64,000 bases of DNA from an uncultured Verrucomicrobiae bacterium. Its GTDB lineage: Bacteria; Verrucomicrobiota; Verrucomicrobiia; Limisphaerales; SIBH01. Position 1 is the first letter of the stretch; every line of letters starts with the position of its first letter. The notes beneath the pieces were generated by a model, which saw only the letters and a list, made by a program, of their open reading frames with translations, was not told the origin of the DNA and made no database searches. Shown here in pieces: positions 21,696 through 53,267 of the stretch. The stretch is from contig CAVXCM010000007.1 of assembly GCA_963760275.1 (NCBI GenBank), positions 196,921 to 260,920 of the forward strand, given 5' to 3'. The position numbers were made by a program, and so were the translations under genes.

Positions 21696-22310
21696 TTACA
21701 TCGCCATGCGCGAGATGGGGTCGCTCCAATCGCTGTAGCCGGTGCTCCCGCCGATGGCGCGAGCCTGCACCGTATACGTGATGCCGGGCGTAAGGTTCTC
21801 AATCAGGATAGGACGGGAATAAGTGAACAGTCCCACCAACTGCCACCCACTGGTCCCATAACTCATGCGCACCTCATAGGCGCGCGCCGTGGGCACGCGC
21901 TTGAGGCGCAAGCCGAGTTGGGTGCTCTGGGGATTATCCAAACGTTCCACTTCAGGCTTCACCAACACCACTTGCGTATGATTTGTGCGCACGGCATCGA
22001 AGCCCGAGGAGAGCAGCATGGCGAGGTCCTCCCCGGCGATGCTCTGCACATACGCCGCTTCCTGGCGAAGGCTGCTGAGCAGGAATGTCCGCGCCGCATT
22101 CTTGGCCGCGACATTCTGCCGGCCGCCTTGCATGGCGGCGGCGATCGCGTTGGCGAACACGGTGCGGGCCGCGGCGAGGCTCGCCATGCTGATGATTGGC
22201 GCGGCAAACGATTCGTTCCCTGTCATCTTTTGCACCACGTTATCCGCGAAGGAATTGAGCGGTGAGTCGGACAATCGGGCGAAGCCTAATGAAGTGCGAT
22301 ATGTAGCCAT
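21696..22310 (-). CDS. Fibronectin type III domain protein (helical N-terminus + FN3), no signal peptide
   Basis: C-terminal NLTPGITYTVQARAIGGSTGYSDWSDP; ggaaaggaaac SD-like sequence upstream. Confidence 0.8.
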   Translation of the reverse strand: MATYRTSLGFARLSDSPLNSFADNVVQKMTGNESFAAPIISMASLAAARTVFANAIAAAMQGGRQNVAAKNAARTFLLSSLRQEAAYVQSIAGEDLAMLLSSGFDAVRTNHTQVVLVKPEVERLDNPQSTQLGLRLKRVPTARAYEVRMSYGTSGWQLVGLFTYSRPILIENLTPGITYTVQARAIGGSTGYSDWSDPISRMAM

Positions 22311-22889: not shown

Positions 22890-23215
22890 GCAAGTCTGCT
22901 GACCGCGTTTGCAGACTTGCTGAGCGGCTGTGCAGACTTGCTGAGCGGCTGTGCAGACTTGCTGAACGACTGTGCAGACTTGCTGAACGGCTGTGCAGAC
23001 TTGCTGAACGGCTGTGCAGACTTGCGGAACGGCTGTGCAGACCTGCTGAACGGCTGTGCAGACCTGCTGAGCGGCTGTGCAGACTTGCTGAACGACTGTG
23101 CAGACTTGCTGAACGGCTGTGCAGACTTGCTGAACGACTGTGCAGACTTGCTGAACGGCTGTGCAGACTTGCTGAGCGGCTGTGCAGACTTGCTGAACGG
23201 CTGTGCAGACCTGCT
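22890..23215. repeat. 21-bp tandem repeat (gcagacttgctgaacggctgt) x14 plus degenerate flanking units
   Basis: Full units at 22911-23204 with few variable positions; 11-bp inverted repeat at 22889-22921. Confidence 0.95.
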
Positions 23216-23318
23216 CCCGACGTTTGCAGGCTTGGTGGGCCTCTGGGTAACGGGGCTCGACGCTCTGGCCAGGTTCGCAACGAACGGAAGGAGGTTGCCA
23301 GGTAGGCGATGCGGAGTT

Positions 23319-23384
23319 CGAATGCAGAAGTCCGAATTGCGATGTCCAGATTAGTTCGACATTCCAAATTCGTCATTCGTCATT
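23319..23384. repeat. 66-bp REP-like element with attcgtc heptamers, copy 1
   Basis: cgaatgcagaagtccgaatt...aattcgtcattcgtcatt; direct copy at 23547-23612. Confidence 0.8.
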
Positions 23385-23391
23385 CGCTTCG

Positions 23392-23540
23392 TTCGTCCTT
23401 GAGCAGCTGCTCCAGCAACTCGGCGGCGACGTTCTTGTGCTTTAGGCCGCGCACTTCGGCGAGGAATTGGTCGCTCAGGATCGAGATGTCCGGCTTGGAC
23501 AATCCAGCGGCGGTGAAGACGTCGATCACCTGGCCCTGGG
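23392..23540 (-). pseudogene. hsdR: Type I restriction subunit R C-terminal (DUF3387) fragment
   Basis: [47 protein letters not shown]. Confidence 0.8.
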
Positions 23541-23546
23541 GAAGTG

Positions 23547-23612
23547 CGAATGCAGAAGTCCGAATTACGAAGTTCAGCCAGTTCGGCATTCGCGAATTCG
23601 TCATTCGTCATT
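23547..23612. repeat. 66-bp REP-like element, copy 2
   Basis: Direct repeat of 23319-23384. Confidence 0.8.
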
Positions 23613-23614
23613 TT

Positions 23615-23685
23615 CCACTCCGTCACCACCTGCACCCAGCGCTTCTTGCCGTCTTCCTGTTCGAGGATGTTCTCCTGTCCGGCGA
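23615..23685 (-). pseudogene. hsdR: Second short HsdR fragment
   Basis: AGQENILEQEDGKKRWVQVVTE resembles the HsdR segment preceding DUF3387. Confidence 0.6.
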
Positions 23686-25741
23686 TTAGACAAACCGGCA
23701 GCGCTTAGCTCTGCGATGCACTCACGCACTAGTCTCTTTGCTTTGGGAAGGAACTTGTAGCTGATGCGCTTCGTTGGCTTGCCCGTCCTCCCGATCAACG
23801 GATGGGATGCCATGCTTTCGTACCGGCGATCATGAACTTCCGTCGCCAGTTCATAGGTCTTGGGAAACTTCCTCGCGAGCTTGCCCGTTGGTGCGTTCAA
23901 AACGCTACCGATATGGCCGAGGTTGTAGCCACCGACGGTTCCGTCGCTGCTGACAACGGCATCCAACAGCAGATCATCAAACACATCGAGGAAGTTGACG
24001 AAACCGGTGATGTTCACGCCGGAAGCGGCGACGGTCTCGATTGCCTGTAGTTCAGCCTGGTCATAGCGCGTTCCAAAAAGTTTACGCCAGTTCAGTGCTG
24101 GAATGCGGGAATCGAGTTTGCGGAGTGCGTGATTGATTCCGCAGTAGTTGGCCGTCGAGCGCTGAATGATCCCAAGCTCACGCATAATCAGTTCGGCGGA
24201 TTTGTTCCAACCCCGCCGTCTGCCGGGTGGCAGGTAGGCAGTTTCCATACCCTTCCATCCGGCGGCGAGTGCGGCATCTCGTCCTCGATCAGTCACTCCC
24301 GCCTCGACGATTTGTTGAGCGTGTTCCTGCCCAACTGAGACGGGCTGGCGGCATTGATCAGGGATGCACGAACCCACCACGCGGGCGCAACTTTGCAGGC
24401 ATAGGCAATCTGGCTGGCGGACAGAGTGCCGGTGCGAATCAGGAACCGGCCCGTGGCAACCTGCAGGTCGGCGTGCATACCCTTTGGAGACCACGATTTC
24501 TTCAACAGCCGTGCCATGGCCCTGTCCTCGGCGACTGGAAGGCGCCCATCTGCTGCGTCGATAAACTCTGCGCGCACGGATTGGTAAAGCGTGCTGGCTT
24601 TCACGAGCTCGACCAGCTTCGAGGCAGGCACACGAGGCAGCTTGGCGTAGCGTCGTAGGTAGTTGCAGACGCTCCGGTAGATTTCGGGGTGCTTCTCCAG
24701 AATCCGCCACAGCCGGGCGGTCAGAATCGTGCGGAGGCGTCGCGTGCGCTAGCAGATATTTGAAGCGAGTGGGGTTGCTGATTCGATAGCGCGGGCGTCA
24801 GTTCCTCGATGCGCGTTAGCAGCTTTTTCTGATCCGTAAAGTTGGTCTTGATCGCCGCTTCCGGCGGGTTGGACACAGACTTCAGCTCGTCCTCAATGTT
24901 GTGGACGCGGTGGATGCTGATCTTGCCACTTTGCGGGAACAGACCGACATCCTTGCTCATCAGATCGAGCGAAACGAGTAGGCGACGCAAGTCGTGCTCG
25001 TTCTTGGCGAAGAGTCGAATGTCGTCCACATAGCGGAAGTAGCGGAACATCGACGCCGGGGAGTCTTCAGCTCGTCGAGATGGACAAGCACGACTTCGGA
25101 GAGGAGGCCGGACGAAACGGTCCTTGAGGGATGCCGTGACCGTGGTGATGCCCGCTCGGTCGCGGTCCACTTCTCCAGCCACCGCGGCAACTTATGCAGA
25201 AGTCCGGGTCGAGGCCGAGCTTGTCGAGGAAGTGGCGGAGCACGCGGTGGTCGAGACTGTCGTAGCAGGCGGTGAGGTCGAAGCTGGCGGTATAGACGTA
25301 GCCGCCGCGAATGCGTCTCGGGCGTATTCGTTGAAGGCTTTGTAGCCGTCGCTCCATTTTCGGTAGAACCAGGTCGATGTCTTGCCGACGTAGAGGTGCC
25401 CGAAGACTTGTTTGATGTAACGTTGGTCGACTCGGGGCCAGCTTCTCCGCGATGAGGTTGACGGCTGCTTGATAAACGATCTGGTCTTCGACGCTGGGCA
25501 ACGAAAACGGACGGAGGATGCCGGAGGCTTTGGGGTGAAAAAGCTTGCAGGCCGATTCGGGTTCGTAGATGTCCGCTTTAGCCTGTCAGCGAGGTCATCA
25601 AGCAGCGCCTCCTCTGCGACGGCATACTGTTGGTAGAGCGGTCGGAAGTAGGACTTGTAGGAAGCGTCTGCATTCGACCGCAGCCAACGCCACGCTCGGC
25701 GGCAGGTTTTCTGGGTGACGCAGTTGGTTGAGGTCCGACAT
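23686..25741 (-). CDS. Reverse transcriptase, UG/Abi (AbiA-like) class: RT + helical region + putative HEPN; multiple frameshifts
   Basis: Reconstructed across frames: MSDLNQLRHPENL-RRAWRWLRSN, PKASGILRPFS, DQIVYQA, FYRKWSDGYKAF, FDLTACYDSLDH, GIPQG, YFRYVDDIRLF, C-terminal HDRRYESMASHP. Confidence 0.85.
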
Positions 25742-25851
25742 GCAAAGGCTCAGCCGTTGAAGATGCGGTCGAGTAGCAAGGGGTCAAGCGTTTCACATAG
25801 CTCTCCGCCTGAGCATCCCGGTAACGCTGCGCTGGAGAATAGTAGCACAGG

Positions 25852-27316
25852 CTAATTAGCATCTGGGATTTTAATCAGGTTCTCAACCGAACAAGCTAAA
25901 GCAGCTAACGATGATTTCACGGCGGCCGGGCCGAAAAACGCCCCGTCCTTGTGCATAACATCATTGAGTTCCGCAATCTGCTTGGTGCAGTTCGAAATGG
26001 CCCCAAGCAAATCAGAGGAGTATGGCAACCTCATTCCCGCAATCTTCTTCTTCAGTTTATTGGCGACATTATCCAGCAAATCACTGTGGCCTTTTTGCTG
26101 TTGATCGGGCGTTTCTTCATAGCAGCCCAGTCTCTTAGCGTGATGTTTCAGCGTTGTTTCAATCATGGCGCGGGTCAGCGCGGCACACGCGACTGGAAAC
26201 TCTCTATACTGCTGAAGCCTGCAATACTCGTAGAAAATAGCGGACGCCTTCTTGCCCACGTTTTTTCTCAGTGAAAGAATTTGCCGATCTGTGGGAGGGG
26301 TGTCGCCTCCTGGCTGGGTTAGGATCCATTGCTACCCTCGTTGCCAGATGTACTCCCAGCGCTGCCGCTATCACCCGGTTTCCCAGCTCCAGCGGGCTTG
26401 CTGCCCTTTGGCTCTGGGGTGGGCTGTGTTTGGCTTGGAGAAGCTGGTTTGAACCCATTCGGCAGGATTGATTTCCAGAACTCTTGCCGCGACTCTTCGT
26501 TGTTTGCAGACCTACGGGTAAATCCGCCTTCAAGTGTTGACTTTGCAAATCCAAGATATGCGCGATGGATGACTTCCACGACCTCACGGTTGTTAGGAAC
26601 TTGATACACGCCATCAGAATCCCAGGGCGAATCCGAGCATCTTTGGAAATGCAGAAAACGATGTTGTTACGCGCTCAAAATTGGTGATGCCATCATCTTC
26701 AAGCTGGAAGTCCGGAATGTGGATCATCATTGCTTCGTAGAGCAGCCATATGTTGATCTCCTTGCGGATTTCAGTCTGTGTAGCTCCGGTGACCTCGGCG
26801 ATGTCCTGAATGGACTGTCCAGCCTTGTGATTGTCGTAGTGAGATGCATAGCGAGCTAATGTTTCCCACTCGCGAGAACCTTCATTGTGCGCCCGATACA
26901 CAATTCTCTTGGCGTCGCTAATACTCGAAGTCACCCAGTATCTGATTTTGCCAGGAACCAATCCTTTGAGCTTCTCGCAGTCAGCGCGGAGACCATGCCG
27001 AGTGCTCGGCACGAGGGTGAGGTCATGGATCATCTTGAGCGCCGCGACTCGCCTATTGCCGTCAATAACCACAAGCTGCGATTTCCCTGGAGCCTTGAAC
27101 ACTACTGGGATTTCATTGTTTAGATATCCTCGGTCTGCCAATAGGTGCTTGATCACTTGGCTTGGAGACTGCGAACCCATCCTGCACAGTCTTTCGATTA
27201 GCTCTTTCTCAGATGTGCCACCAGGGTGGAGACGCAGGCGCGGGATTTAGTCGATGAGCAAGGCGCAAAGTTGCGACGCTGACTTCACGGGAGCTGATTT
27301 GGCAGAACTCTTTCAT
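25852..27316 (-). CDS. ParB/Srx-like N-terminal domain protein with a HEPN-like C-terminal helical domain (frameshifted)
   Basis: NPR.., VVIDGNRRVAALK, proline-rich linker, FPVACAALTRAMIETTL...LNDVMH; joins ORFs 26614-27180, 26319-26609 and 25852-26259. Confidence 0.65.
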
Positions 27317-28193
27317 TTGATTGCGGATTGTGATGGGAATTTCAGTTTATCAGCGAGGGTTATAAATTCCCTCCTTCTACCTTTGTTCGCGAGTGCGTGG
27401 TGCGTGTGAATCGTTGTGTGCTGGTGTTGCTTGTAAAGTTCCAAAATCTCCGGGCAGAGGTCATAGCTCAGGACCCATGATTGATCGTGGAACTCATCAG
27501 GAAGTCACGGAGAGCCTCGTGGTCGCTGTGCGTGTATGCGTTCAGATAAAGCTCCGCAGCCTTGTGGTAATACGGTGGGTCCAAGTAAACAAAATAGTCT
27601 TCCAGCGTTTCCGCAGCTCGCCGGAGGAGTGTGATCGCATCCATGTTTCGTGCTGTGATCCGGTGCCGGTTCTCGTGTAGGAACTTGACCTTTGCTTTCA
27701 GTGCCGGTCGGTGGAAGCGACAGTCTATTGAGTAGCTGCCGGATTGGTCATAGCCGCCGATCGGCCCCCCGCAGCGCTTAATGACTCCTGACACGCAAGT
27801 TCGGTTAAGGTAAAAAGCCGCAAATCCAAGCTCAAATCCCCGTGCCCGTCCCCTCAAAATGCGGCGTTGGTTGTGCCATTCTTCGACATCGAGCTCAACG
27901 GTCTGTATGAGCTCCATGAACCGTTCACCCTCAGTTAAAGCTGCCTTCCAGAACCAATAGACTGCCGGGTCTTTGTCATTGAGTGTAACTGAGCACTGTA
28001 CGCCAGTGCGTAGTAATTCGAGAGCGGCGCCTGCACCCCCTGCATATGGCTCTAGATAATGGCATCCGTTCAATCCGTTCAGTTCGATTACCGCCGCTAG
28101 GTAAGGGGCGAAAGATCGCTTTCCGCCGGGATACCGCAGCGGGCTGATATGCCTCTGCAACTGGAGGGCGACGTATTTTTCAGGCGGGCTCAT
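27313..28193 (-). CDS. Dam/D12-class N6-adenine DNA methyltransferase (frameshift near 27475)
   Basis: SPLRYPGGK, EPYAGGAG, YLNRT, YLDPPYY; continues as WVLSYD...SAIK-stop with an ATGA overlap into the ParB-like gene. Confidence 0.9.
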
Positions 28194-28426
28194 TGCTTCA
28201 TCGGTTCAGTCGGTTGTCCGGCCTGGTGTGCAAACCGACCTGACAATTTTGGAAATGCCGCGAGATGCGCGGTCAGTAGTGCGCCCGCGCCCGCGTCCAG
28301 CAAGCGCACCGTTCGCGGAAGCGGGCCGAACATGGAAGCCATGAAGCCAGCTACCGGCGAGGCGGTAAGGAACTGTCCGAGTTCCTCATGCCTTTCATTG
28401 GGGTTGGCTGTGGCCACAAGTCTCAT
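28190..28426 (-). pseudogene. N-terminal remnant of a BsuBI/PstI/Eco57I-type methyltransferase
   Basis: LGQFLTASPVAGFMASMF...RLLDAGAG, after which similarity is lost. Confidence 0.65.
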
Positions 28427-28452
28427 GTCTTTATGCTACCAAACTGAGGTCC

Positions 28453-28610
28453 GTGGTGGATGAAGTGCTGCACGCAGGCGAAGTTGGCGTTGCCCTTGGG
28501 CGGCAAATCATTTCGACACCTCACCCCGGCCCTCTCCCCGTTCGAGGCGGAGAGGAGAAGAAGCGCACGTCGGCGTCCTTGCGGAACCAGTCAGAGTGGT
28601 TGAAGGGCGA
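28453..28610 (-). pseudogene. hsdM: HsdM motif IV region fragments interrupted by a palindromic repeat
   Basis: PFNHSDWFRKDADVR (28562-28610) and PPKGNANFACVQHFIHH (28453-28503). Confidence 0.75.
28519..28555. repeat. REP-like palindrome cctcaccccggccctctccc...ggagagg
   Basis: Imperfect hairpin cctctcc...ggagagg inserted between hsdM pieces. Confidence 0.6.
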
Positions 28611-28617
28611 TATTGGC

Positions 28618-29764
28618 TCAGAATTCTTCATCATCGGCGAAATACTCTGCAGTTTTTTGGAGGAAGTCTGGCTTCAGCGAAGTCGCGAGGCCGAGCTTCC
28701 GAATTCCGTCCAACTTTTCCATCAACTTCGAGAAACTGATGAATCCGCAGACCTTCGCGAGGGGCTTTTCACGAAGGGCAAATGTCGGGCGTAGAATCTC
28801 CTGCTCGACTTTGTCCTGTCGTTCCTCCGGGGCGACTAGAAATAAATTGATTTCAAGGTTCGGCTGCAATGCGAGGAGGTCGCTCATGCGAAGCAGGCCA
28901 GAGTAAACCGCCGTGGTGCATTCGACCTCAAATGCGGCGACGATGGAGTTCCCCTTGAGCCAGAGTCCATCGATCGACTCGATGGTGCGGTTGGTCGCTT
29001 CGTTGAATTGGGTGGGCGACTCGGTGACCATGCGCGGAAGTTCGCCGAGCGTCTTGCCCTGCCATTTCTTGGAGCGGTCATTGCGCGCGACCCAGAGGTC
29101 GAAGCCCATGTCTACGCCCAAGGTGAGAAGGTTGTATTGAATCTCAGTGTGGCGTGTCGTCGCTGTTGCCTCCTGCTCGGTCGTGAAGTCTGGCTTGCCC
29201 GTTTGCTCTTCGGGTTCGTCGGATTCAGGGACGCTGACCTTCGTCGCGACTGTGGTTTTTCCTTTCTTTTGCTCGGCAGTGTAGAGGGGTTTGCGTGCGA
29301 GCTTCTTGGGGTCGACGGGGCGAGCGATGGGGTTGGTTTGCGCCTGTTTGAGAAGGGAGCCGGATAAGCTCGCCGTCCTTGGGATTCGTAAAGCGGTTCG
29401 GGCTGGAACGGACGAATGCCTTGAATTTACCTCGGTCTTTTCGGCCAGTGTAAAAGGCAACTTTACCCTCAAGCTCCATCATCGGGACTCCGTGTTCTGG
29501 GTTGAGTTGGATGAGTGGCTTCACCTCGAAGCGAATGGGAAATCTTCATCACCCCAAATCTTCGACTGGTCGTCGGTCGCTCGCACCACTTCCAAAGCGC
29601 CCACCCAGCGCATTACTCCAGTGAGGTAGCAGAGGAGAATGTCACCGGGTTGAACTTTCGCCGCAGCATTGCGCATTCTCTTGCGGAACCCGGAGATTCT
29701 TCAGCCCGGACTTTTGGAACTCGTTCCAAGTAGTGCCAGTGAAGAGGTCGAGCCAGTAGTTCAT
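28618..29764 (-). CDS. EVE/PUA-like domain + PD-(D/E)XK nuclease (putative modification-dependent restriction), frameshifted
   Basis: MNYWLDLFTGTTW, VQPGDILLCYLTGVMRWVGALEV; C-terminal HTEIQ..L..LG, IDGLWLKGNSIVAAFEVECTT.VYSGLLRM.DL. Confidence 0.8.
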
Positions 29765-29789
29765 AGGTCAGTTCATTTCAAATTTCCAA

Positions 29790-30114
29790 AAGAGCTGGCC
29801 GGGGAGGGCGACCATGCAGTCCACGAGGTCGGCCTCGATGAGGGCGCGGCGGATGGCGTCAGCGTGCTCGGGGCGGAAGTTGGCGGTGATGGCGGATTTG
29901 CAGAAGCGGGGGATGTCGGCGTGATCGTGGTGGGGTGAGACTCCGTCGAACCCTAACTTCTTTCCCGGCCCGCTTCTTTGATCAGGGTTCGAGAGACTCT
30001 CACCCCACCAGGTAAATGACCACGGCAAGCGTGGTAGATGGAGACGCTTTTATGGATGGTGGCGGTGCTGTTGTTTTGCGAGTTATTGCTGGCTGTGGAT
30101 TTTGGGCGGGCCAT
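29790..30114 (-). pseudogene. hsdM: Mosaic of HsdM fragments (N-terminus plus scrambled internal pieces)
   Basis: MARPKSTA...STA; ADIPRFCKSAIT / ANFRPEHAD / IRRALIEADLVDCMVALPGQLF. Confidence 0.7.
29929..30009. repeat. Inverted pair of REP-like units (ggtggggtgagactccgtcgaaccc); further copies at 30280-30303, 32130-32153 and 32166-32189
   Basis: 29929-29953 and 29985-30009 are near reverse complements. Confidence 0.8.
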
Positions 30115-30251
30115 GTGCGTCCGCTGAAGTTGCCAAAGTGCGGAAGCAGGCGGCAAGGGAAAGTCATTCTTCGTAGTGGGTTGTTGTCATTCAGGAGGCG
30201 GGACGGTTTCGGGCGGGCCAGCATCGTTCTCTTCCTCTTCACTTCTTCTTT

Positions 30252-30493
30252 TTCAAGAGTGTGAGGAAGGCTCGCGGGTGGCTCGACGGAGTCTCGCCCC
30301 ACCTACACTGCTTTCGGGTCGGTGGCGGGTTGGCATTCTGATTTGCGCATGCATTGTGGGCGGGTAGGAATCGCCAGTTTGACACGAATATGAATTCGAA
30401 ACTTTTCAGCAGTGTTGTTGCTGTCACGTTGTGCGCACAGTGGGGGCTGGATGCCGCCAGTTTTGATTGGCCTCAATGGCAGGGACCGAATCG
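30252..30493 (+). repeat. ~240-bp direct repeat, copy 1: upstream region and first ~35 codons of the 32276 propeller gene
   Basis: Near-identical to 32106-32379 ([34 protein letters not shown]). Confidence 0.95.
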
Positions 30494-30603
30494 AACTGGA
30501 AGAGCATTCTCATCGCCCGCTGGACGGGGAATTGATCCGCGCGTTGCACCATGATTTCTGCGGCGATCTCGTGCCGGACATTTATGACCGGCGGCTGTCG
30601 CAC

Positions 30604-31076: not shown

Positions 31077-31976
31077 ATGAGCAATGCCCCGGTTCAAACG
31101 CAGGCCGGACTTGAAGCGCAACCTCCGTTGCCGGTGCGTCGTTTGCACAACTTCATCTATTGCCCGCGGCTGTTTTATTTCCAGTGGGTCGAAAACATTT
31201 TCCAGGAGAACGCGGACACGGTGGCGGGCAGTCACGCGCATCGCAACGTGGATGCGCCGTCGAAGCTGGAGGACGCCAAGGAACTCGGCCTGCCGGAAGG
31301 GGCGAAGATTCGCAGTCTCAAGCTGGAGAGCGAAGCGCTGGGGCTGGTCGGCGTGGTGGACATTGTCGAGGGCGGGCCGGAGGGCGCGGAGGTGCTCGAT
31401 TACAAGCGCGGCTCGGCGCGGCGGAACGCGGAGGGCGAACGCGAGGCGAAGGAGCCGGACGCCATCCAGGTGGCCGCCCATGCGCTGCTCCTGCGCGAGC
31501 ACGGGGTGAACGCGGTGCGCGGCGCGATCTATTACGCGGCGGACAAGCGGCGCGTGCCGGTGGATTTCACGGAGGAACTGTTTGGCAAGGTCACGAAGGC
31601 CATCACCGATGCGAAGCAGACGGCGAGCAGCGGGCGCTGTCCGCCGCCACTCAAGAATGATGCGCGCTGCCTGTATTGCTCGGCGTATCCGGTCTGTCTG
31701 CCGAATGAAACGCGCTGGTGGGCACAGGCGCGGAAGGAGGCGGTGCCGGAGCCGCAGTTACACTTTGCGTTCAGCCCGCCAGCGGAAGATCGATTGCGCG
31801 AACAGATTCTTGAGGCGCTGGATTTCGCCGCGGAGTCGGGCCTGCGCGTTGGTCAGGTTCACAAAGTTCGTCCGCGCAGTCGCCGCAATTCCGAAGAGCG
31901 TGAGGCGGCCACTCAGGTTCGGCGAGATACGTGTCAGTATCCAGGCGCGCAGTCGCCGCAATTCCGAAGAGCGTGA
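31077..31976 (+). CDS. cas4: CRISPR-associated Cas4 (N-terminal part of a Cas4-Cas1 fusion, Cas1 lost); the ORF runs on into the array
   Basis: LHNFIYCPRLFY, GVVDIVE, LDYKRG, Q...ALLL, CLYCSAYPVCLP (4-Cys Fe-S cluster). Confidence 0.85.
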   Translation: MSNAPVQTQAGLEAQPPLPVRRLHNFIYCPRLFYFQWVENIFQENADTVAGSHAHRNVDAPSKLEDAKELGLPEGAKIRSLKLESEALGLVGVVDIVEGGPEGAEVLDYKRGSARRNAEGEREAKEPDAIQVAAHALLLREHGVNAVRGAIYYAADKRRVPVDFTEELFGKVTKAITDAKQTASSGRCPPPLKNDARCLYCSAYPVCLPNETRWWAQARKEAVPEPQLHFAFSPPAEDRLREQILEALDFAAESGLRVGQVHKVRPRSRRNSEEREAATQVRRDTCQYPGAQSPQFRRA

Positions 31977-32053
31977 GGCGGACTCATTCAGGGCCGTGCG
32001 GTTGTTCATGTATCCGGCGCGCAGTCGCCGCAGTTCAAAGGGTATGTGGCAGT
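31873..32053 (+). CRISPR. Mini/relic CRISPR array: two identical 36-bp repeats plus one degenerate repeat, spacers of 36-37 bp
   Basis: cgcgcagtcgccgcaattccgaagagcgtgaggcgg at 31873-31908 and 31946-31981, degenerate copy from 32018; adjacent to cas4. Confidence 0.75.
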
Positions 32054-32105: not shown

Positions 32106-32379
32106 TTCAAGAGTGTGAGGAAGGGCGTTGGCTCGACGGAGTCTCGCCCCACCCACGCCGGACTTGGCTCGGCGGAGTCTTGCCCCACCTACACTGCGTT
32201 CGGGTCGGTGGCGGGTTGGCATTCTGATTTGCGCATGCATTGTGGGCGGGTAGGAATTGCCAGTTTGACACGAATATGAATTCGAAACTTTTCAGCAGTG
32301 TTGTTGCGGTCACGTTGTGCGCGCAGTGGGGGCTGGGTGCCGCCAGTTTTGATTGGCCTCAATGGCAGGGACCGAATCG
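32106..32379 (+). repeat. Direct repeat, copy 2 (contains one extra REP unit)
   Basis: Matches 30252-30493. Confidence 0.95.
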
Positions 32380-33979
32380 GGACGCGCATTCGAAGGAGAC
32401 CGGCCTGCTCACGGCGTGGCCGAAGGATGGCCCGCCGCTCGCCTGGAAGGTGAAGGCGCTCGGAGGCGGGGACAGCACGCCGTCCGTGGCGGCCGGCCGA
32501 ATCTACGGCATGAGCCATCGCGGCAATGACGAAATCGTCTGGGCACTTTCAGAGAAGGATGGCAGGGAAATCTGGGCGGTGCGAATCGCTCCGGCGCAAC
32601 CTCAGAATTGGCCACAGTCCAAAGAGGGCCCGAGCGCGACTCCGACGGTGGACGGAGACCGGCTGTATGTGATGGGGCTCGCCGGCAATGTGGCCTGCCT
32701 CCAGGTGGCGGATGGCAAGGTGCTTTGGCAGCGAAACCTGGTGGCGGATTTCAAGGGGCGCAGTCCGATGTGGAGTTTCCGGGAGTCGCCCCTGGTGGAT
32801 GGCGACAAGGTGATTTGCACCCCCGGCGGAGAGGAAGCCACGATGGTCGCGTTGAACAAGCGGACGGGCGAGACGATCTGGAAAAACCAGGTGCCGGACC
32901 GTGCGGCTGCCAGCCCGACACAAACTCGCGGGCCGGGCGGCAATCGCCCCCCTGCGATGCAGACGGATTTGGTGCTCTCGACGCTGGACAAGGACCAGAG
33001 CAAGGACCTCTCCGCCGATGAACTCACGGCAGCACCGACCGTTCTCCTGACCCTGGACAAGAATCAGGATGGAAAACTTTCCGAGGATGAAGTGACACCG
33101 GCAAGCGCAGGCGGCGACGGACAAGGTGCGACTCGCCGTCGCCGCGGCCCGGGCATCATGCGGATGATCAAGGCGCTCTCGGCGCTGGATGCAGACGAGA
33201 GCGGCATGATTGAAGACGCCGAAATCAAGGGCGCGGTGGCGGCGTTGAAAAAGCTGGATGGCAACGGCGATGGCACATTGACGGAGGATGAGGCGGGCAT
33301 GAAATCGATGAGCCCGCCGAACACGGGAGCGGCGTATTCGTCCGCGATCGCGATCGACTTCGGAGGGCAGCGTCAGTACGTGCAACTTCTGGCCATGACG
33401 GTCGCCGGAGTATCCGCGGCGGATGGCAAGTTGCTGTGGCGTTATGACAAGCCGGCGAATTCAATGCGGATTAATATCTCAACGCCCATTTATCACGACG
33501 GCCATGTGTTCGCGGCGACGGCGTATGGCGCGGGCGGTGGACTGGCGAAATTGGTGAAGAAGGAGAACGGCGAGTTTGCCGCCGAAGAGGTGTGGTTCTC
33601 CAAGTCGATGGAGAATCATCATGGCGGCGTGATCCTTCATGACGGGGCGTTGTTCGGCGCGAACGGCGGCAACGGCGGCGGCTACCTGGCGTGCCTCGAT
33701 TTCAAGACGGGCGAGGTGCTGTGGAACGAGCGCGACGCGGACAAACGCCGCGTGACCAAGGGCTCGGTTGCCTTCGCCGATGGCCGAATCTATTACCGCA
33801 CTGAGGAGGGTCCGATTGTTCTGATTGAACCCAGCCGCAAGGAGTATCTGGAGCGCGGACGGTTCGACCAACCCGACCGCACGGACAAGCCCGCCTGGGC
33901 GCATCCCGTCATCGCGAACGGCAAGCTCTACATCCGGGATCAGGACACGTTGTTCTGCTACGACGTGAAGGCGAAGTAA
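32276..33979 (+). CDS. PQQ-like beta-propeller protein with an inserted EF-hand region
   Basis: [51 protein letters not shown] and [13 protein letters not shown]. Confidence 0.88.
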
Positions 33980-51473: not shown

Positions 51474-53267
51474 ATGAGTCTCCAACGCTACAAGCAGAAA
51501 CGGAACTTCGGCGACACACCGGAACCTGAAGGGAAGGTGCTCAAGCGCAAGATGCCCGAGTTGCTGTTTGTCATTCAAAAACATTCAGCCAGCCACCTGC
51601 ACTACGACTTCCGCCTTGAATTGAATGGCGTGCTCGTTTCATGGGCGGTGCCCAAGGGAATTCCCACGAAAAAGGCGGACAAGCGTCTCGCCATGCATGT
51701 GGAGGATCATCCCATCGACTATGGCGATTTCGAAGGCGTCATCCCCGAGGGCAATTACGGCGCGGGAAGCGTCATGGTTTGGGATACCGGAGTGTGGGAG
51801 CCACTGGAGAGCGCGCCTGATCGGGCGCTGGAGAAGGGCAAGTTAAAGTTCATCCTACGCGGCAAAAAGTTGAACGGCGAGTGGACGCTCGTCCGCATGC
51901 GTGCCCGCAGCGCGGCAAGCGGGAAGGACGAATGGCTGCTCATTAAGAGCGGCGAGGATGTCGCTCCCATTACCGCCAAACGCGATGACCAATCCGTCCT
52001 GACTCGCCGGACGATGGCGCAAATCGCGGGACAAAAAACGCGAACGTGGAAATCGAATCGCGAAACAGATTCAAAAAAAAAGTCCTTCAAGGAACGCATC
52101 GCCGCGGCGGCACAACAACGGGGAGCCCAACGCCACTCCGAAAACGGAGCGAGTCCCCAGCGCGCCAAAAAAAACGTCGCTCCGGCAGTGACGTCAAATG
52201 ACCTGCTCGACAAACCTTCGCAGACTACTCCCAAGGCTTCAGCGCAAACCGGTGCGGTAACGTGGGAGAAGTGTCCGGTGGAATCTCCAAAGTTCATCAA
52301 CCCGATGAAAGCGGTGCTCGTGAACACCCTGAGTCCACAAGAGGACTGGCTGTTGGAACTCAAGCACGATGGGTATCGGGCGCTCGCGGTCAAGGACGGT
52401 GGTCGAGTCGAACTTTTCTCACGCAATCAGAAAAAACTCACCGCTTCGTTCCCGACCGTAGTCCGCGCCATTCAGAAACTCTCCCCTGATAAACTGGTCC
52501 TCGACGGAGAGATTGTCGCGTTGGACGAGCGCGGCCATGGGTCCTTCCAATTGCTCCAGAATCATGAACGCATTTCCGATCCAGGGACCTTGGTTCTTTA
52601 CGCGTTCGACTTGCTCAATTTCAACGGGCGAAACATCCGCGCCCTCCCCCTGGCGCAACGACGCGGATTACTCGAATCCCTCATGACCAAGGCCGATGAA
52701 CCCCTCCGCTTTTCGGTAGCTCTCCCTGGTGCACCCAAGATCGTCTTGACGGAAATCAAGCGTCTCGGATTGGAGGGCCTGATCGCAAAGAAGCCCGACT
52801 CACCGTATGAAGCAGGCCGCCGTTCCAATGCGTGGGTGAAAATAAAATGCCTCAACGAACAGGAATTTGTCGTTGGTGGCTATACGGCGCCCAAAGGTTC
52901 GCGGGATCATTTTGGCGCTCTGCTGGTCGGCTACTACGAGAGTGGTCAACTTCATTTCGCCAGCAAGGTTGGAACGGGTTTCACCCAAGCCACACTTCGT
53001 GACCTGTTCAAACAATTCAAACCGTTTCATCAAAGCGCTTGTCCGTTCATCAACCTCCCGACCAAACGCTCCGGGAAATTCGGCCAAGGCGTCAGCGCCG
53101 CCGAGATGCGCAACTGCACCTGGCTGAAACCAACCCTGGTGGCTCAAGTCCGCTTCACGGAATGGACCGGCGACGGCGGCCTGCGCCATCCTGTATTTCT
53201 GGGTCTTCGATCAGACAAACGCGCCGAGGAAGTCGTTCGTGAGGTGGCCATCGTGCAGTCGGGTTGA
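51474..53267 (+). CDS. ligD: NHEJ DNA ligase D (phosphoesterase + ATP-dependent ligase, no polymerase domain)
   Basis: HLHYDFRLE, SWAVPKG, EDHP; ELKHDGYR, EGLIAK, WVKIK, GTGF, LRHPVF.GLR. Confidence 0.9.
   Translation: MSLQRYKQKRNFGDTPEPEGKVLKRKMPELLFVIQKHSASHLHYDFRLELNGVLVSWAVPKGIPTKKADKRLAMHVEDHPIDYGDFEGVIPEGNYGAGSVMVWDTGVWEPLESAPDRALEKGKLKFILRGKKLNGEWTLVRMRARSAASGKDEWLLIKSGEDVAPITAKRDDQSVLTRRTMAQIAGQKTRTWKSNRETDSKKKSFKERIAAAAQQRGAQRHSENGASPQRAKKNVAPAVTSNDLLDKPSQTTPKASAQTGAVTWEKCPVESPKFINPMKAVLVNTLSPQEDWLLELKHDGYRALAVKDGGRVELFSRNQKKLTASFPTVVRAIQKLSPDKLVLDGEIVALDERGHGSFQLLQNHERISDPGTLVLYAFDLLNFNGRNIRALPLAQRRGLLESLMTKADEPLRFSVALPGAPKIVLTEIKRLGLEGLIAKKPDSPYEAGRRSNAWVKIKCLNEQEFVVGGYTAPKGSRDHFGALLVGYYESGQLHFASKVGTGFTQATLRDLFKQFKPFHQSACPFINLPTKRSGKFGQGVSAAEMRNCTWLKPTLVAQVRFTEWTGDGGLRHPVFLGLRSDKRAEEVVREVAIVQSG

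Follow-up and report, generated by a model that had tools for sequence, protein, structure and literature searches.

Within a 64,000-nt stretch of the genome of an uncultured Verrucomicrobiae bacterium (C7:196921-260920, contig CAVXCM010000007.1; hereafter, the window), four known or candidate defence genes lie on the minus strand among small pieces of a type I restriction-modification (R-M) operon, hsdMSR, several of which adjoin repeats denoted REP1, REP2 and REP3. The genome assembly (G000) comprises 4.85 Mb in 15 contigs and is 70% complete. Homology searches with intact HsdM, HsdS and HsdR from genomes of the same order as queries recovered the hsd pieces, at up to 97% nucleotide identity and in the order given by an initial annotation made from the sequence alone; all elements listed in that annotation are present on the minus strand. 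Eight pieces, ~514 nt of the ~6.1 kb operon, are left, in agreement with the earlier statement that almost all R-M coding sequence is gone. No hsdS was detected at the window locus with these queries, and whole hsdM, hsdS and hsdR, as expected of a functional type I R-M system, are not found there. The scaffold had been described as scrambled, which holds for hsdM, the pieces of which are permuted (starting at codons 1, 451, 262 and 358, then, beyond a nuclease gene with an EVE-like domain, 290 and 315), but not for the two hsdR pieces, which are colinear. At this and related loci, the hsd genes are destroyed, the cargo genes are full length, REP3 is confined almost only to hsd genes, and the joints between REP3 and hsd are re-paired across families.

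The locus begins with a 69-nt head (30096..30164, minus strand, as are all features below unless palindromic or tandem), which consists of 50 nt upstream of the hsdM start and the first codons and is common to four G000 loci. The hsdM codons ~1-20 (30055..30114) match the start of a longer hsdM remnant at C2:1320.8 kb, and are followed by an inverted pair of REP1 (29928..30010) that forms a hairpin and occupies the same place in a paralogous locus, C2:1484 kb. The next hsdM pieces are ~451-463 (29882..29920; 87-94% nucleotide identity to intact alleles), ~262-271 (29859..29885; missed by BLAST and read by eye against loci L063 and L071), and 358-379 (29788..29858; 97% nucleotide identity to an intact relative). 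The gene for an EVE-like domain and a type II restriction endonuclease (REase)-like nuclease (28618..29764) is followed by hsdM 290-305, out of order (28562..28617); REP2 (28519..28557), of which the genome has just two arms, both within hsdM remnants; hsdM 315-332 (28453..28505); and the ~50-codon 5' stub (amino acids ~3-52) of a BsuBI/PstI-type methyltransferase (MTase; 28190..28426). Then come a PD-Lambda-5 B-like Dam-family methyltransferase (27313..28193), a PD-Lambda-5 A-like gene that had been annotated as ParB-like (25852..27316), and a UG19 reverse transcriptase (RT; 23686..25741). The hsdR piece 790-813 (23619..23685) begins 1-2 nt past the RT stop; a REP3 copy (23540..23612) replaces hsdR 814-871, and hsdR 872-926 (23386..23538), a second REP3 copy (23312..23384) and, as the tail of the locus, a 21-nt tandem array (22910..23215) complete the arrangement. 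The joints that do not involve a REP show merely 0-11 nt of overlap.

The RT was assigned to UG19 by PADLOC (E = 3e-166 over residues 4-682 of an intact, 86% identical homolog of 686 aa), this being the best model and matched over its full length, and the catalytic motif, YVDD, is present in the window. The Dam-like gene of the window matched PD-Lambda-5 B (E = 2.6e-80), and intact homologs of the ParB-like gene (485-488 aa; P0085/P0087) matched PD-Lambda-5 A at a distance (E = 1e-24 to 1e-26). The window thus resembles PD-Lambda-5 in having an adjacent A gene and methyltransferase B gene, both with hidden Markov model matches, and differs in the distant match of A. PD-Lambda-5 gives Escherichia coli broad protection (Vassallo et al. 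2022, PMC9519451), and the consulted sections of a survey of RTs treat the defence role of UG19 as a prediction (Mestre et al. 2022, PMC9226505). An anti-phage role is likewise predicted here for the PD-Lambda-5-like pair and UG19. An internal hsdR piece, starting at residue 671, lies within ~10 nt downstream of UG19 in an assembly of Planctomycetaceae (L045 175-3071). The weak EVE-like N-terminus and REase-like C-terminus of the EVE gene were read on an intact homolog in G017, which sits after REP2 and a truncated gene that we take to be DndC-like (L027 8285-10382). The MTase stub derives from a type II methyltransferase that in relatives is paired with a BsuBI/PstI-type REase; a similar stub in G008 precedes other cargo, Dcm and a BsuBI/PstI REase, and in both genomes its stop overlaps the next start codon.

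All four cargo genes are full length, as initially stated, and none is open in the assembly, with ~19 small frameshifts in total. Frameshift-aware alignment yielded 12 frameshifts in the RT, three in the ParB-like gene and three in the EVE gene, with zero in-frame stops, and the Dam-like gene has one frame change close to the 3' end. The ribosomal protein operon and secY are also frameshifted in the G000 assembly, in indel-rich patches. Because the same assembly breaks these genes, the cargo frameshifts probably stem from errors in the consensus sequence, and the cargo genes themselves are likely to be intact. Pseudogenisation of the cargo is disfavoured by the 18 frameshifts without a stop in three genes and by the indel patches in essential genes, and further by 22 small indels that distinguish an independent contig (see below) and by an open homolog on another contig. 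At C13:707000-716000 and C2:1386000-1392000, heavy frameshifting affects ribosomal protein, secY and pilus genes, and such patches of consensus error call for caution with other 'pseudogene' findings in G000.

A search of sequencing runs gave one run (share 0.07), from a relative and not from the strain itself; its independent short-read assembly provided a 5,064-nt contig (X1) that is ~90% identical to the window locus. X1 contains the hsdR 790 piece, the RT, the PD-Lambda-5 pair, the MTase stub, 91 nt and hsdM 358-379, with the RT-hsdR junction identical to that in the window, and lacks the EVE module. A 298-nt record adjoining X1 shows an hsdR 813-to-873 gap of at most ~86 nt, compared with ~180 nt in the intact gene. 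Since the independent assembly has the main junctions too, the shredding of the hsd scaffold is confirmed at the level of assembled sequence. The variable part of the locus appears to be the EVE module together with the out-of-order pieces hsdM 290-332 that accompany it; X1, in which EVE is missing, is ~10% diverged, and no empty allele of this locus was identified. The loose end of X1 upstream of hsdM 358 matches G087, which carries different cargo, for 28 nt.

We consider it very improbable that assembly of mixed strains produced the scaffold. The indel-rich patches that reach even into essential operons would fit such an origin, as would the at least 30 identical bases shared by 5 of 44 within-genome pairs of REP3 copies; against it, X1 reproduces the joint of RT with hsdR, the shortened gap within hsdR and the MTase stub, identical joints occur in other assemblies, and the non-REP joints have only the small overlap given above. 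None of the 44 pairs shares 54 bases, which makes assembler chimeras unlikely at long word sizes. The artefact reading is valid only for the small frameshifts.

REP3, initially reported as a 66-bp repeat, is a ~73-nt hairpin built of mirror-image heptamers, and its two window copies are 86% alike. Three palindromic families had been proposed; REP1 does fold (z = -5.0) and REP3 is a hairpin, whereas the fold of REP2 is no better than that of shuffled sequences (z = +0.9). REP3 was detected in 15 of the 301 genomes of the order, spanning 12 families (three candidates were scored per genome). According to automatic mapping, 37 of 42 copies from 15 genomes have hsd on at least one side, in a set that mixes loci found through hsd with loci found through REP3; where loci were chosen on the REP3 match alone, 15 of 17 map to hsd. 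The flank mapping discarded matches below 40 nt or below 79% identity; one discarded 50-nt match (G078:C251) is without a clear hsd neighbour, and G037:C284 and G016:C11 were left out. All three copies in G000 lie within hsd genes. Conversely, REP3 hardly occurs in ordinary intergenic DNA, where weaker relatives, resembling the left arm only, are ordinary hairpins (weak matches to two partly out-of-frame queries were disregarded). The association of the repeats with hsd therefore stands for REP3 and, within G000, for REP2, but not for REP1, only 3 of 14 arms of which are located in hsd heads and the remainder elsewhere in the genome. The stretch of coding sequence replaced by REP3 ranges from ~15 to 800 nt. 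In G078, five copies divide hsdR into colinear pieces, each 25-45 codons long; hsdM contains three related hairpins together with a four-helix-bundle gene with related heptamer arms. A search of Rfam gave no match beyond a single chance one.

The breakpoints recur among genomes to the nucleotide, and common junctions adjoin differing cargo, as the initial annotation had anticipated. The left joint at hsdR nt 2111 is identical to the base in G037, G078 and G101; the right joint at nt 1714 in G078, G087, G125 and G260; and the right joint at nt 2614 in the window and G101. The left joints cluster, with 24 joins at 15 sites versus 21.2 expected (P = 0.0004, uniform draw; three second-family maps rely on a reference that was itself taken from one of these loci), and so do the right joints, with 22 joins at 13 sites versus 20.3 expected (0 of 20,000 draws; one site, at aa 200, is a mis-mapped second-family flank), all P values being overstated due to kinship. 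The same joints occur in various pairings: left hsdR 702 with right 727, 754 or 872; right 573 with left 505, 524 or 809, the last of these a backward jump (G260); and right 872 with left 813 in the window and with left 702 in G101. In G037, one copy has hsdR 637 on one side and a second type I family on the other. For 21 copies, the pairing of left and right flanks was no better than that of shuffled flanks (P = 0.17). Near-clean insertion sites, with almost coincident left and right joints, were found at hsdR ~488 and in the second family. New pairings of old joints are most simply explained by crossovers within REP3, and recombination at REP3 is well supported by them.

Such exact joints, together with the near exclusivity of REP3 to hsd genes of two families and the near-clean insertion sites, could also be read as the work of a dedicated enzyme, such as a hairpin-recognising recombinase or the product of a four-helix-bundle or DUF559 gene present in these loci, which would use REP3 as its site, cut hsd at fixed positions and move segments in an integron-like manner. 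The four-helix-bundle gene with heptamer arms in G078 hsdM and a DUF559 gene between REP2 arms in hsdM on C2 are consistent with this possibility, which we nevertheless regard as distinctly improbable. The flanks pair as if shuffled and the arms vary freely; among 30 fetched PF05635 four-helix-bundle loci, none has a full REP3 and one has a type I gene nearby; viral contigs contain no exact match to a 20-nt REP3 core; and among plasmids only hsdR itself was matched, in two records. No integrase was found among the window open reading frames (ORFs) of at least 230 aa, and none of the eight PF00589 tyrosine recombinase matches genome-wide is near any of the four G000 loci. Comparison with the attC consensus revealed no core boxes at the hairpin ends and no arrangement of one site per gene. 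The hairpins sit between hsd pieces. Individual cargo genes are not enclosed by repeats, and hence the arrangement is not integron-like. A REP-associated tyrosine transposase (RAYT), suggested earlier as a possible partner, was rejected as the mobiliser: the four Y1 genes in the incomplete G000 are flanked by other palindromes, without a matching REP.

An intact hsd operon, which the initial annotation proposed to look for elsewhere in the genome, was not encountered: the 70%-complete G000 yielded neither a whole HsdM nor a whole HsdR of this subfamily. The paralogous locus at C2:1484 kb matches the window in 257/288 nt that cover the head, the REP1 pair and the ensuing jump to hsdM ~451, and is fused to the last hsdS codons. 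Its cargo, which lies between hsdR 5' stubs, consists of a PDC-S06-like AAA ATPase and a zeta gene; the scaffold forms one 128-codon frame that ends 15 nt short of the cargo start. This frame and the stop/start overlap of the MTase stub hint that scaffold may be retained for expression. The head probably drives transcription of the cargo; a scan of its 69 nt gave no consensus promoter site, and it is not detectably conserved beyond G000 (three weak matches in 300 genomes). At C2:1321 kb, a longer hsdM, DUF559 between REP2 arms, REP3, GASH cargo and the last 26 hsdR codons were identified. Two type I systems from other families, both with frameshifts, are present in G000 as well. At L015 (C2:363000-371700), the same head lies ahead of a frameshifted system from another type I family, with a DRT4/6-like RT and a four-helix-bundle gene as cargo and an HsdM 98% identical to that in G260, which belongs to a different bacterial family. 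Three of the six strongest tandem arrays in G000 (period 21 or 42, unrelated units) are directly downstream of the three hsdR remnants of this family, in the window and at C2:1323188-1323455 and C2:1479956-1480205; similar arrays follow hsdR in G002 and G078.

Among the best 150 of 187 HsdR matches, those with at least 70% identity come from at least 15 of 71 genomes, and a full-length HsdR frame is present in 2 of these 15 among the matches listed. The loci of 14 of the 15 genomes were inspected: 12 have a stub or internal deletion away from contig ends, one is cut by a contig end, and one is intact; as the loci were chosen for their broken look, the count per genome is the only informative one, and intact genes may be masked by contig ends. 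A metagenome scan gave one locus and was uninformative. Four hsd pieces lie within 350 bp in G010, without cargo; G012 has hsdM 1-53, KilA-N and hsdR 1049-1072; and in G006 a backward hsdR-to-hsdM fusion with 11 nt of overlap is ahead of a Cas9-like gene. The cargo among 42 scanned ORFs includes Fic, RhuM, HipA, Dcm-REase pairs, type IIG enzymes, DprA and JAB. The hsdR 5' stubs (~30-90 codons) surround cargo as direct repeats in G009, G061, G088 and on C2 of G000, as expected from insertion with target duplication, and in G088 the stub copies carry the same private insertion. Between alleles, hsdR shows 92-93% identity over its first 90 nt, compared with 73-80% over the next 90 (four of four pairs). 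In G080, an open 887-aa HsdR lacks residues 105-410, which are replaced by an insert between REP2 arms (L095 8197-10860).

The interpretation that we advance, with about even confidence, is that the hsd scraps and hairpins serve as crossover patches for homologous recombination, reshuffling the scaffold without an integrase and probably swapping cargo. Under this scenario, hairpin insertions and microhomology deletions would have inactivated hsdM and hsdR, and selection would have retained the cargo plus the head. Crossovers within REP3, inside or between alleles, would give old left and right joints new partners, and crossovers in short conserved hsd patches would likewise reassort the scaffold. 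Cargo would be gained at a stub, through integration by a single crossover or through tandem duplication, which would permute hsdM here and leave the hsdR 5' stubs of relatives repeated on both sides of cargo. Specifically, a circle with hsdM 290-379 and the EVE gene, entering at the resident 358-379 and subsequently trimmed, would produce the observed order; tandem duplication with loss is an alternative route to it. With regard to the earlier proposal that hsd fragments and REPs are recombination handles for cassette-like exchange, recombination at REP3 is borne out by the new pairings, whereas cassette-wise movement of the cargo is not; we infer the exchange of cargo via hsd pieces from the arrangement of the loci.

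Several points weigh against this interpretation. At 30-70 nt, the pieces are short for RecA to recombine them efficiently, and neither a crossover point inside a stub nor a circular intermediate was observed. The clustering of joints is reuse by descent and not independent targeting, the shared joints may be inherited by descent, and the forward pairings are mostly explicable by intramolecular deletion between two REP3 copies, free of exchange. No REP3 copy was seen to bound a cargo gene directly at both sides, and hsd neighbours UG19 at only 4 of 21 loci. Collapsed scaffolds without cargo occur in G010, G013 and G020; other defence genes are also reduced to stubs (DndC-like in G017, cas4 in the window); and intact operons hold cargo in the same slots, so exchange may predate decay.

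Many of these points would follow from passive decay, in which hsd was inactivated, hairpins accumulated, nested deletions (some between REP3 copies) ensued, and the cargo was spared by selection, with the scraps now idle and carried along only within larger transferred segments. This is a strong rival to the handle reading, possible and in our judgement somewhat unlikely. Along with the collapsed loci that lack cargo and the stubs of unrelated defence genes, it would accommodate the many one-off microhomology joints, the zero mapped cargo crossovers and the heritability of shared joints. Under passive decay, one would not readily expect a joint to jump backward (G260) or to link two families (G037), hsdM to be permuted together with an EVE module that X1 lacks, or hsdR 5' stubs to lie in tandem around cargo, and this rival leaves the near-absence of REP3 in ordinary intergenic DNA without a reason. 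Going beyond crossover patches, REP3 might be an hsd-aimed hairpin element that disables restriction and cuts the operon into standard pieces, creating a platform for cassette-like, integrase-free exchange in at least a dozen families; we deem this version rather improbable.

The published survey of defence genes embedded in type I R-M systems is, in its accessible text, restricted to pseudogene-free systems (Payne et al., bioRxiv 10.1101/2024.01.29.577857). The window shares with these systems co-oriented defence cargo, placed between hsd pieces on the same strand inside an hsd operon, and differs in that the host operon is ~92% deleted, punctuated by hairpins and not free of pseudogenes. The enterobacterial immigration control region (ICR) is similar in its variable restriction and defence content; it is a single site between conserved housekeeping anchors, whereas here there are several sites per genome that share internal hsd scraps and hairpins, and the consulted part of a review names an integrase for a hotspot neighbouring the ICR, in contrast to the ICR itself (PMC12707154). 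Direct repeats at R-M-linked inserts that lack mobile-element genes have been reported as target duplications, in which a start or stop codon is often included (Furuta, Abe, Kobayashi 2010, PMC2853133); in the cases presented there, the R-M system is the insert, and here R-M pieces are the repeats. The hsdR 5' stubs form direct repeats around the insert both in relatives and at C2:1480 kb, whereas the hsdM pieces around the window EVE gene do not overlap.

Arms made of mirror-image 7-nt units are also described for the heptamer hairpins of PF05635 four-helix-bundle cassettes (MacGregor 2015, PMC4679880); compared with the hairpins in the consulted text, the REP3 subfamily occurs almost only at hsd pieces and replaces coding sequence. 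Weaker related heptamer hairpins are common between genes in the genomes analysed here. The short tandemly repeated repetitive sequences (STRR) of cyanobacteria are another group of heptamer-repeat hairpins. Integrons, clusters of attC sites lacking an integrase (CALINs) and REPIN-RAYT systems resemble the window in that hairpins punctuate an array with defence cargo. Unlike integrons and CALINs, the window has neither an integrase nor terminal attC boxes, and its hairpins separate hsd pieces, not genes; unlike REPIN-RAYT, no cognate RAYT was found. A literature search, with limited coverage of subscription journals and supplements, found no description of hairpin-delimited hsd fragments.

How genes turn over in chromosomal defence islands devoid of integrases and transposases is an open question. 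The hsd/REP3 loci record defence-gene turnover at the nucleotide level and name candidate crossover sites, and a repeat restricted to one gene family calls for a targeting mechanism. Screens for embedded defence genes that demand an intact host system miss such loci, and hsd scraps and REP3 could serve as baits for new defence genes.

Several neighbouring features were also observed. A gene for a 204-aa fn3-like protein follows the hsd remnant in the window (21696-22310) and in G005 (L066 507-1121), and another small gene family follows hsdR in G001, G008 and G009. Upstream of the hsd head, 30279-30509 and 32165-32391 form a ~230-bp direct duplication (94-97% identical) of the upstream region and 5' end of a PQQ-repeat gene, with REP1 copies at either end; between the two duplicates lie hicAB, a cas4 stub and a CRISPR-like remnant. 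In this interval, a Cas4-like ORF (31077-32040) runs into two identical 36-nt repeats 73 nt apart and a partial third; this appears to be a collapsed CRISPR-Cas locus adjoining the collapsed R-M locus. The window also encodes a LigD-type ligase (51474-53267), and we speculate that end-joining repair via this enzyme could add to the microhomology deletions.

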